In this document: in pieces, positions 10,425 to 11,164 of the stretch
Numbering within the stretch: the stretch's first letter is position 1
Layout of the letters: every line of letters begins with the position of its first letter
Source: Rhynchopus sp. YZ270_cl-10
Taxonomy: Eukaryota
Direction: 5' to 3'
Assembly (NCBI GenBank): GCA_964035575.1
Contig: OZ037833.1
Location: 558,001 to 622,000 of the forward strand
Length of the DNA: 64,000 bases
Program-made: the position numbers and the translations under genes
The notes under the pieces: generated by a model
Database searches by the model: none
The model's input: only the letters and a program-made list of their open reading frames with translations
What the model was told of the DNA's origin: nothing

Positions 10425-11164
10425 TTAACACGCGCACTTCCCCTCACGTTTCTTCTGGGGTGCGGGAAGGGTTTGTCTACCGAACTGAATACCCGACTCT
10501 ACCGCATTGGGGTCCTGTTTTTTGGGGGGAATTTTTTTTTTTTTTTTGATAAATTGTTGGAGTAGTGTAGTTGCCTCGGTTGTGTTGCCACAGTTTGTGC
10601 AATCTCCACCTTTTTTTATTTACAAAAGCATACCAATGCACCGTTCATGATGTTTTCGTAGATAGTCTTGGCTGTGCTGACGAAGGCTTCTTCGACCTTG
10701 CTGCCGGTCTTTGCAGAGCACTCGTGGAAGAGCAGGCCATTCTCCTCTGCGAACTTTGCAGCCTCCTCATACGACACCTCGCGTGCCTGCTCCATGTCCT
10801 GCTTGTTCCCGATGAGCATCATCACTGTGTGCGGGTTTGTCAGGTTCTTTGCATCCTGAAGCCATGACGATAAGTGGTTGAACGTTGTCCGGCGTGTAAT
10901 ATCGTACACAAGAATCGCCCCAGCAGCCCCCCTGTAGTACGACCGCGTCACAGCGCGGAAGCGCTCCTGCCCCGCAGTGTCCCAAATCTGCAGCTTTATG
11001 CTCTTGTCCACGACGTCCACCACCCGTGTCCCAAACTCCACCCCAATGGTGTGCGGGCTGTCGCTCAGAAACTTCTTATCCGTGAATTGGTGGAGCAGAC
11101 ACGACTTCCCTACCCCCATATCACCGATAATGATGTACTTGAAGATATATGCGTGCTCAGTCAT
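10425..11164 (-). CDS. RAB14: Rab14 small GTPase; join(10425..10514,10634..11164)
   Basis: [58 protein letters not shown] 119-nt GTATG...CAG intron is followed by exon 2 [10 protein letters not shown]...GKCAC* (CxC prenylation). Confidence 0.96.
10548..10609 (-). other. Family B conserved element filling the Rab14 intron
   Basis: gtggagattgcacaaactgtggcaacacaaccgaggcaactacactactccaacaatttatc. Close copies at 21778, 24190, 34412 and 37556; partial copy in the BILBO1 intron at 17540. Confidence 0.85.

Follow-up and report, generated by a model that had tools for sequence, protein, structure and literature searches.

The Leishmania SIDERs are ingi-derived elements of ~550 nt, present in ~2,000 copies per genome and showing a 4-fold bias towards the sense strand (PMC2689281). 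In Diplonema papillatum, nearly 10,000 repeat motifs have been reported, the commonest of which has ~6,000 copies, in a genome with one-strand gene clusters and scattered rRNA pieces (PMC10161547). Introners, which are also repeats, are marked out by similarity that extends to both splice boundaries and by their occurrence at new intron positions (PMC9860276). With regard to splicing signals, the introns of Diplonema japonicum have a GTATG donor, A-rich acceptors and only rarely the motif YTRAY, and across three Diplonemidae species YTRAY is found in just 13–16% of introns, so that the diplonemid branch signal appears unsettled; CA/CAC-rich intron motifs have also been reported in Diplonemidae (PMC12621601). 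Kinetoplastids are described as having no conserved branch motif (PMC11613528).

Here, we describe a short hairpin repeat, element B, in a 64-kb stretch of DNA (the window, on which all of our positional counts rest). The window has a GC content of 46%. Pfam matches were obtained for 8 of 36 scanned ORFs, seven of them on the minus strand and the eighth to DUF659, which we take to be a transposase-associated domain. The homologues of the BILBO1-like protein encoded here are 52–71% identical to it, with Diplonema papillatum among them at 58%, and matches to the Rab14 protein include transcriptome entries tagged Sspe and Hpha (80–82%), presumably Sulcionema and Hemistasia. We take the window to be diplonemid DNA with a one-strand gene cluster, as in D. 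papillatum (PMC10161547). ARAGORN reported no tRNA genes in the window, and there was no U2 among the 17 Rfam matches obtained for its whole length.

A number of other features of the window deserve a brief mention. A fragment of eukaryotic SSU rRNA with an internal 53-nt duplication is found at 1350–1610 on the minus strand (Rfam, 58.8 bits), with a weaker SSU-like piece at 49927–50041 on the plus strand. An element of roughly 760 nt is present in three copies (15813–16569, 45755–46507 and 48621–49393), two of them 99% alike; its matching inverted ends suggest that it is likely to be a non-autonomous DNA transposon. The DUF659 ORF (53767–55332, plus strand) is enclosed in a 5.2-kb intron (51469–56665), 30–55 nt upstream of whose acceptor a partial hairpin of family C (see below) can be seen by eye. 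Long arrays of perfect tandem repeats occupy 33294–33700 (a 7-mer unit) and 45103–45700 (an 8-mer unit), and the 7-mer array is followed by a GTATG donor-like site at 33241, so that part of the 20–33 kb spacer may be one long intron. The ORF at 34559–35000 resembles by eye a second BILBO1 N-terminal-domain gene; it has no Pfam match, and no first exon was found for it when introns were delimited by open-frame joins.

Element B was first noticed in the Rab14 gene, which has two exons (10428–11164, minus strand), matches Pfam Ras and is 80–91% identical to its closest matches in eukaryotic transcriptomes and assemblies. The first-pass annotation placed in this gene a 119-nt intron (10515–10633). 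This intron (GT..CAG, phase 0) is borne out by the finding that the translation of exon 1 joined to that of the sequence after the CAG aligns without gaps to full-length Rab14 proteins of relatives. The same annotation had B making up nearly the whole intron. This overstates its share: B (10548–10610) accounts for 63 of the 119 nt (53%, or 60% with its flanks included). Within B, a predicted imperfect hairpin is followed by a 16-nt tail. The 8-mer ACTACACT (10564–10571) stops 49 nt short of the end of the intron and is predicted to form the 3′ arm of the outer stem, whilst the tail contains the lone YTNAY of the intron's last 65 nt (10549–10553), a candidate branch site with its A at −36. A run of 16 A, a C6A6 tract and the CAG acceptor (10515–10547) complete the intron.

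Checked against orthologues, the Rab14 intron does not appear to be new: its position is common to three relatives (P0039, P0042 and P0044, 84–89% protein identity) whose ORFs, judged from their ends, depart from the Rab14 reading frame at the very codon where the unspliced ORF of the window does so. We infer that the position predates the separation of species differing by 11–16% in this conserved protein. Since the position is common to relatives, yet the B copy within the intron is 94–95% identical to two spacer copies, the simplest order of events would be intron first and B later. Contigs assembled from four public runs cross the Rab14 donor unspliced, and no joint for this intron is among the 15 of 57 listed. 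Retention of the intron (10616–10633) would give a protein ending in VCFCK, with two cysteines near the end; this ending is probably due to chance, since the run-ons of the relatives end differently. A scan of metagenomes for Rab14 returned 80 loci, none above 76% identity, and no matches to eight family HMMs.

Five full copies of B are present in the window, all on the minus strand and all where the first-pass annotation had put them. In addition to the Rab14 copy, these are found at 21778–21837 (in a long spacer, immediately after a hairpin of family F1, with a CAG at 40 nt as its first AG), at 24190–24250 (also in a long spacer), at 34412–34474 (81 nt past a stop codon, likely in a 3′ UTR, with the 8-mer broken) and at 37556–37616 (736 nt past the stop codon of the USP gene, in tandem with a short variant at 37633–37680). 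The copies are 60–63 nt long with pairwise identities of 80–95% and are followed by A runs of 16, 7, 9, 4 and 9, that is, 7–16 in four of the five. The A tail of the 24190 copy is home to an element of ~970 nt (23209–24177), presumably a PIF/Tourist-like MITE, with terminal inverted repeats starting GGGCTTAG and TAA on each side.

A covariance model built from the five full copies allowed the proposed variants, seven in number, to be graded. Two were recovered at E <0.01 (59896, at 59894–59942, E 5e-6, and 58361, at 58359–58407, E 0.002; both minus strand), two weakly (62871, E 0.15, and 15709, E 1.6) and three not at all (19325, 50343 and 63837; E up to 5). The 15709 variant (15704–15755, minus strand) and the three similar sequences that the model missed (19323–19361, 50341–50381 and 63834–63885) are diverged and short, and are recognised by eye and by seed HMMs. 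To these, the model adds two that had been overlooked, at 46959–47016 (E 0.003) and 37633–37680 (E 0.13). CTACACT, described earlier as the most conserved part of the family, is present in variants 19325, 58361 and 59896 but not in the other four of the seven. Of the five full copies, a single one falls within a recognised intron; the other four are outside the ten introns that we could delimit, where UTR introns are possible, and most B-type copies are found in spacers or 81–736 nt past stop codons.

How many copies of B might the genome contain? Contigs of the four public runs were mapped on positions 9400–14400 of the window, a stretch that holds the Rab14 copy, with the BILBO1 intron and the spacer copies outside it. 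Summed contig depth inside B (place 10577) is 1.64, 2.14, 5.71 and 0.94 million in the four runs, against a unique-DNA depth of about 115, 96, 277 and 38–106, giving a ratio of 9,000–25,000; summed contig depth is not itself a copy number. The density seen in the window, 5 per 64 kb, extrapolates to ~8,750 per 112 Mb. From these two estimates, ~10^4 copies genome-wide are likely. In all four runs, loose contig ends at 10609–10617 lose consensus into T-runs (39–49% agreement), which indicates that the 5′ end of B is sharp and that its flanks are unrelated. In the same 5 kb, three further short families reach depths of ~200–2,400 times the unique level.

Element B is one of several unrelated families, 40–130 nt in length, that were brought to light by self-comparison and nine seed HMMs, and hairpin families are found here at about one per kb of non-coding DNA. 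The gene strand carries 44 of the 45 merged hits from the nine seed sets, a count that overstates the strand bias because seeds were picked from families already looking co-oriented; among the non-seed hits the figure is seven of eight. All eight covariance-model hits at E <0.01 are on the gene strand. The sole antisense copy among the 45 belongs to family C and is located in a transposon-rich spacer (25224–25257). Inverted-repeat (MITE-like) families occur in either orientation in the self-comparison. Target supply does not explain the bias, since runs of at least eight A (94) and at least eight T (106) are about equally frequent on the gene strand. Gene expression in diplonemids is thought to be controlled post-transcriptionally, at the level of long polycistronic RNAs whose 3′ UTRs are long as well.

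Some of the companion families have features of their own. Family F4, of ~97 nt (2176–2272, 2308–2338, 5893–5989 and 12609–12693), contains an exact 10-nt complement of the 5′ arm of B; for two of its copies, the antisense strand gives the stronger fold (z −3 to −4.4), and ACTTACCT, the complement of a 5′ splice site, follows two independent copies. Families F1 and F2 share the loop word CACGAGAGG, which has six exact matches, all on the minus strand, and 23 in the window within one mismatch, against 9.2 expected; the F1/F2 loop-word sites number ~12 (for example 22885–22927, 37921–37971, 59251–59296, 37287–37357 and 44272–44390). The tails of families F1, F2, C and G are T-rich, not A-rich. 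Pattern scans gave no matches in metagenome contigs and none in viral contigs. In the accessible literature, including seven supplementary files of PMC10161547, we found no description of short strand-polarised hairpin families in diplonemids.

Predicted folding is better on the gene strand for 13 of 14 B-type copies and for 20 of 24 copies of the other families, with the qualification that folded copies are not independent and that z is modest, about −0.5 to −2 for B. The outer stem of the B-type copies contains one constant purine–purine mismatch. The upper stem varies in sequence between subfamilies with pairing kept (84% of cells pair), and shows nine double changes, a number reached in 4 of 500 shuffles, on four pairs, reached in 160 of 500, in an alignment with two rows partly misaligned. 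Such compensatory changes between subfamilies hint at selection on the hairpin. Covariation gave no support for selection in either of two further sets, with 0 of 14 pairs covarying in the five full copies and one pair (189 of 500 shuffles) in family F2.

B is seen on the gene strand as a repeat, in two introns, at positions common with relatives. The reading that we prefer, and to which we would assign an even chance, is that it is a short gene-strand interspersed hairpin repeat, likely mobile, that entered older introns. The existence of thousands of 63-mers, nearly identical to one another but unrelated in their flanks, calls for some mechanism of copying, which argues that B is mobile or was once so, and the A tail in four of five copies together with the strand bias points to an RNA route. 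B would then be a non-autonomous mobile element, most likely copied via RNA, that inserted into A/T-rich spacers, 3′ UTRs and pre-existing introns. It could be tolerated in introns by virtue of its last 30 nt, which lack AG, and an A tail that seemingly resembles the host's ordinary A-rich acceptors; the U2-like 8-mer would be the 3′ arm of a hairpin and not a branch site, and the strand bias would stem either from insertion linked to transcription or from selection acting at the RNA level.

Parts of the evidence sit less comfortably with retroposition. A poly-A retroposon model leaves some of the families unaccounted for, as F1, F2, C and G have T-rich tails. A SINE-like Pol III head was sought: ARAGORN found no genes and Rfam no tRNA or 5S match. 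A resemblance of the B plus strand to a tRNA A-box followed by a T-run was dropped when no B-box spacing could be made to fit. As to target-site duplication, the flanks of B share A-runs or a 7-nt A/T word only, and neither an autonomous partner nor an empty site was seen in the window. With these absences, and with the T-rich tails of other families, a single-stranded-DNA route is possible, and B might instead be a tiny non-autonomous DNA element that moves as ssDNA (Helitron2/Helentron-like or of another HUH type), its hairpin being the strand-specific recognition site of a transposase. We consider this proposal unlikely. The fixed purine–purine mismatch in the stem does make the two strands differ, and unrelated families share the arrangement of a hairpin followed by a short end motif. 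The ends of IS200/IS605 elements provide a parallel to this arrangement. On the plus strand, moreover, four of five full copies have T on both sides, much like the T/T insertion of HLE2 (PMC11417382), and Helitron-like ORFs have been reported in D. papillatum (PMC10161547). The inverted repeat of B is, however, 7–8 nt, imperfect and subterminal, compared with 12–17 nt for HLE2 (PMC11417382). T flanks are in any case to be expected in DNA so rich in T-runs. Also counting against this route, alignment with the gene strand is not a known property of such elements.

The second intron with B-like sequence is an 85-nt intron in the BILBO1-like gene (17502–17586, minus strand), whose limits, as given in the first-pass annotation, hold good: its exons are colinear with those of relatives. 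That it contains the same core is less clear-cut. A shortened core with the 8-mer can be traced at ~17538–17570, but the match is weak (nhmmer E 0.004–0.01, covariance model E 0.42). In orthologues, judging from ORF ends, the picture is mixed: an intron is present at the same position in P0002 and absent from four genomic ORFs that read through (P0003, P0012, P0013 and P0014). The Rab14 and BILBO1 introns both carry a C6A6 tract (two of the four in the window) and GTATGYTTT, and in both the core ends 49 nt before the CAG and the final 65 nt contain a single YTNAY, the A of which is at −36. This common spacing and these common motifs are not predicted by random insertion.

A third intron (46936–47355), recognised from weak homology and from P0159 stopping at the same codon, has a short B-type hairpin near its 3′ end (46959–47016, minus strand, covariance model E 0.003). 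A protein search with the exon that follows it gave no match among 81 candidates; a second route provided weak support. In all, ten introns were delimited in the window by open-frame joins. Homology checks support four of them (the Rab14 and BILBO1 introns and the two in the gene near 47 kb), the other six resting on continuity of frame and domain. Three B-free introns (Kelch, USP intron 1 and 47624–47844) have A-rich acceptors, so such acceptors do not need B.

If B were an introner, the whole intron would be the mobile unit, and in keeping with this the Rab14 and BILBO1 introns share their first nine bases (with one difference), the core and the C6A6 tract, and the BILBO1 intron is lacking in four genomic orthologue ORFs. 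The spacer copies, however, share no donor or acceptor flanks with one another, only the 60–63-nt interior, and similarity confined to the interior is treated as secondary insertion (PMC9860276). The ends of the two introns themselves show only short low-complexity similarity. Nor do the positions fit, the Rab14 intron being at the same codon in three relatives and the BILBO1 and third introns being matched in one relative each. We regard this explanation as most improbable overall, and as largely refuted for Rab14 by these sequence comparisons. Of the earlier proposal of an introner-like family, the family of repeats with copies in real introns survives, whilst the introner-like character is mostly not borne out, in view of the old Rab14 position and of the four of five full copies that are outside recognised introns. 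Entry of a likely mobile repeat into older introns is the reading that we retain.

The 8-mer was singled out in the first-pass annotation as a U2-complementary sequence, part of an extended branch-point module. There are five occurrences of ACTACACT in the window (1.1 expected, a count of five being reached in 0 of 100 shuffles), every one of them within B or the BILBO1 core. As these five are copies of one repeat, the excess is evidence of a repeat, not of selection for pairing with U2. The statement that the family carries the 8-mer is correct for four of five full copies and the BILBO1 core, but not for the copy at 34412, where it is broken. In the human register, A-4 pairs with U37, C-3 with G36, U-2 with A35 and A-1 with U34, after which comes the bulged A (PMC13167188), and the branch A must bulge (PMC10638238). 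The 8-mer puts A, C, T and A at −4 to −1 and C next, so that a perfect complement of U2 leaves the duplex without a branch A in this register (PMC13167188). A consensus fold also predicts that the 8-mer is base-paired in all five full copies, as the 3′ arm of the stem. In several variants the foot of the stem reads CACTAAT, which is a good YTRAY; this is not the case in either of the two confirmed introns (Rab14 and BILBO1).

Pairing of the 8-mer with U2 as an extended branch point thus strikes us as very hard to sustain. To its credit are the presence of the 8-mer in both the Rab14 and BILBO1 introns, ending exactly 49 nt before the CAG in each, and the retention of GTAG in most U2 snRNAs (75% of Rfam entries; PMC10638238). 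Against this, a perfect 8-bp duplex offers no bulged A and has C at the branch position, the 8-mer is predicted to be stem-paired, and it is broken not only at 34412 but also at the third intron, and absent from eight of ten introns. The heptamer ATTGCAC, proposed as a U1A site, fares no better: it is present in three of five full copies and 12 times in the window, compared with 8.9 expected (21 of 100 shuffles reach 12), a number attributable to chance. U1A binding requires that the heptamer be presented in a loop. In B, four of its seven bases are predicted to be paired instead.

Alternatively, B might be, or be descended from, a small RNA of the single-hairpin H/ACA-like type that underwent mass retroposition; this RNA might have been a pseudouridylation guide antisense to U2. 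ACA followed by three nucleotides is found 13 nt past the upper stem in all five full copies and in variant 59896, B copies are clustered in tandem with other hairpins, and the length up to the ACA, ~58 nt, is within the 57–91 nt range of such RNAs (PMC2613932). Trypanosomatid guides, however, have AGA in place of ACA and a 5′ pocket strand of 5–11 nt (PMC2613932), and in B this strand would be 1–2 nt were stem I to form, which three of five full copies could do with a perfect 5-bp helix. On the predicted fold, B as an H/ACA-like RNA would fail both on its box and on its pocket. In addition, there is no snRNA, snoRNA or ribozyme match for B among the 17 Rfam matches in the window, and ~10^4 diverged copies are far beyond a guide family. 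We therefore hold this origin to be very unlikely.

A more substantial challenge to a mobile repeat tolerated in introns comes from the 3′ splice sites. B and other families might be portable 3′-splice-site cassettes, for cis-splicing and for spliced-leader trans-splicing, that were amplified and then kept. Each cassette would begin with a hairpin and have YTNAY or WTCAA in its tail as the branch motif, ahead of a tract of A or of pyrimidines and a YAG. We see both the proposal and this layout as possible but doubtful, and the broader claim, that diplonemids amplified portable RNA cassettes, thousands per family, defining the 3′ splice sites of cis- and spliced-leader trans-splicing, as more doubtful again. 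Acceptors within T. cruzi SIRE elements are a precedent, which we do not count as evidence.

B-type hairpins end within the last 80 nt of three of ten introns, where 0.23 would be expected (p 0.002); when the two introns chosen in the first-pass annotation are set aside, p is 0.14. One more intron has family F4 and another, by eye, a partial family C, leaving five of the ten with no such element. The lone YTNAY at −36 in both the Rab14 and BILBO1 introns fits the layout. WTCAA follows the stem closely (within ~25 nt) in 23 of 39 copies, compared with a background of 7.6% (a post hoc comparison), and in most copies of five of the six family groups, but in none of nine copies of family F2. TCAA occurs 10 times in the last 70 nt of the ten introns, against 3.9 expected. 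The low frequency of YTRAY in three Diplonemidae (13–16%), which leaves the branch signal unsettled (PMC12621601), makes room for such a motif.

What tells against the cassettes is the behaviour of the AG itself. The first AG at a distance of at least 30 nt is a YAG in 6 of 14 B-type cores, compared with 14% of random positions (p 0.008), yet this enrichment vanishes against a control matched for AG-free stretch and A/T run (37.5%, p 0.44). Removal of the MITE from the 24190 copy would leave a TAG ~38 nt past the core and raise the number of acceptor-like first AGs to 7 of 14, with p still at 0.24. Furthermore, most of the 40 element ends tested are located in spacers or just past stop codons. 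In a weaker form of the proposal, the tail of B may supply a branch motif and an A-tract at some 3′ splice sites. Were cassettes real, they would be the source of the branch signal that has eluded searches for YTRAY in diplonemids, and mobile repeats would be re-equipping old introns with new splicing signals; if the tail of B is the branch signal, the open question of the diplonemid branch point becomes directly testable.

How, then, does B, as a likely mobile repeat of the gene strand, compare with the systems described to date? The 3′ splice sites of Diplonemidae share with those seen here the GTATG donor, an A-rich tract in place of pyrimidines, the CAG and the rarity of YTRAY; the available text gives motif logos and not a 63-nt structured repeat (PMC12621601), and B may be one source of such motifs. 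Like introners, B is a repeat with predicted structure inside short spliceosomal introns; unlike them, it is internal, is mostly outside introns and is found at intron positions common with relatives (PMC9860276). With the H/ACA-like RNAs of trypanosomatids and Euglena, it has in common a single hairpin of similar size, a box-like 3′ triplet and clustering on the transcribed strand, but in B ACA replaces AGA, the 5′ strand of the pocket is inadequate and the diverged copies run into the thousands (PMC2613932). D. papillatum, from the same protist group, likewise has abundant dispersed repeats and scattered rRNA pieces, although its account, as far as available, makes no mention of short hairpin families, of a bias in strand or of a connection with splice sites (PMC10161547).

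If B and its companions are only selfish repeats, they would be a modest, apparently undescribed feature of diplonemid genomes. The resemblance to SIDER1 and SIDER2 suggests that they might be more than this: both sets are non-coding dispersed repeats in euglenozoan one-strand clusters, enriched in the sense orientation and in many cases found downstream of stop codons (PMC2689281). B cannot itself be classed as a SIDER, failing on length (60–63 nt compared with ~550 nt), and it differs further in its likely ~10^4 copies, in being entirely sense within the window and in its presence in cis-introns (PMC2689281). Nevertheless, strand-polarised hairpin families with up to ~10^4 copies each would be a candidate source of post-transcriptional RNA signals, as SIDERs became in Leishmania.
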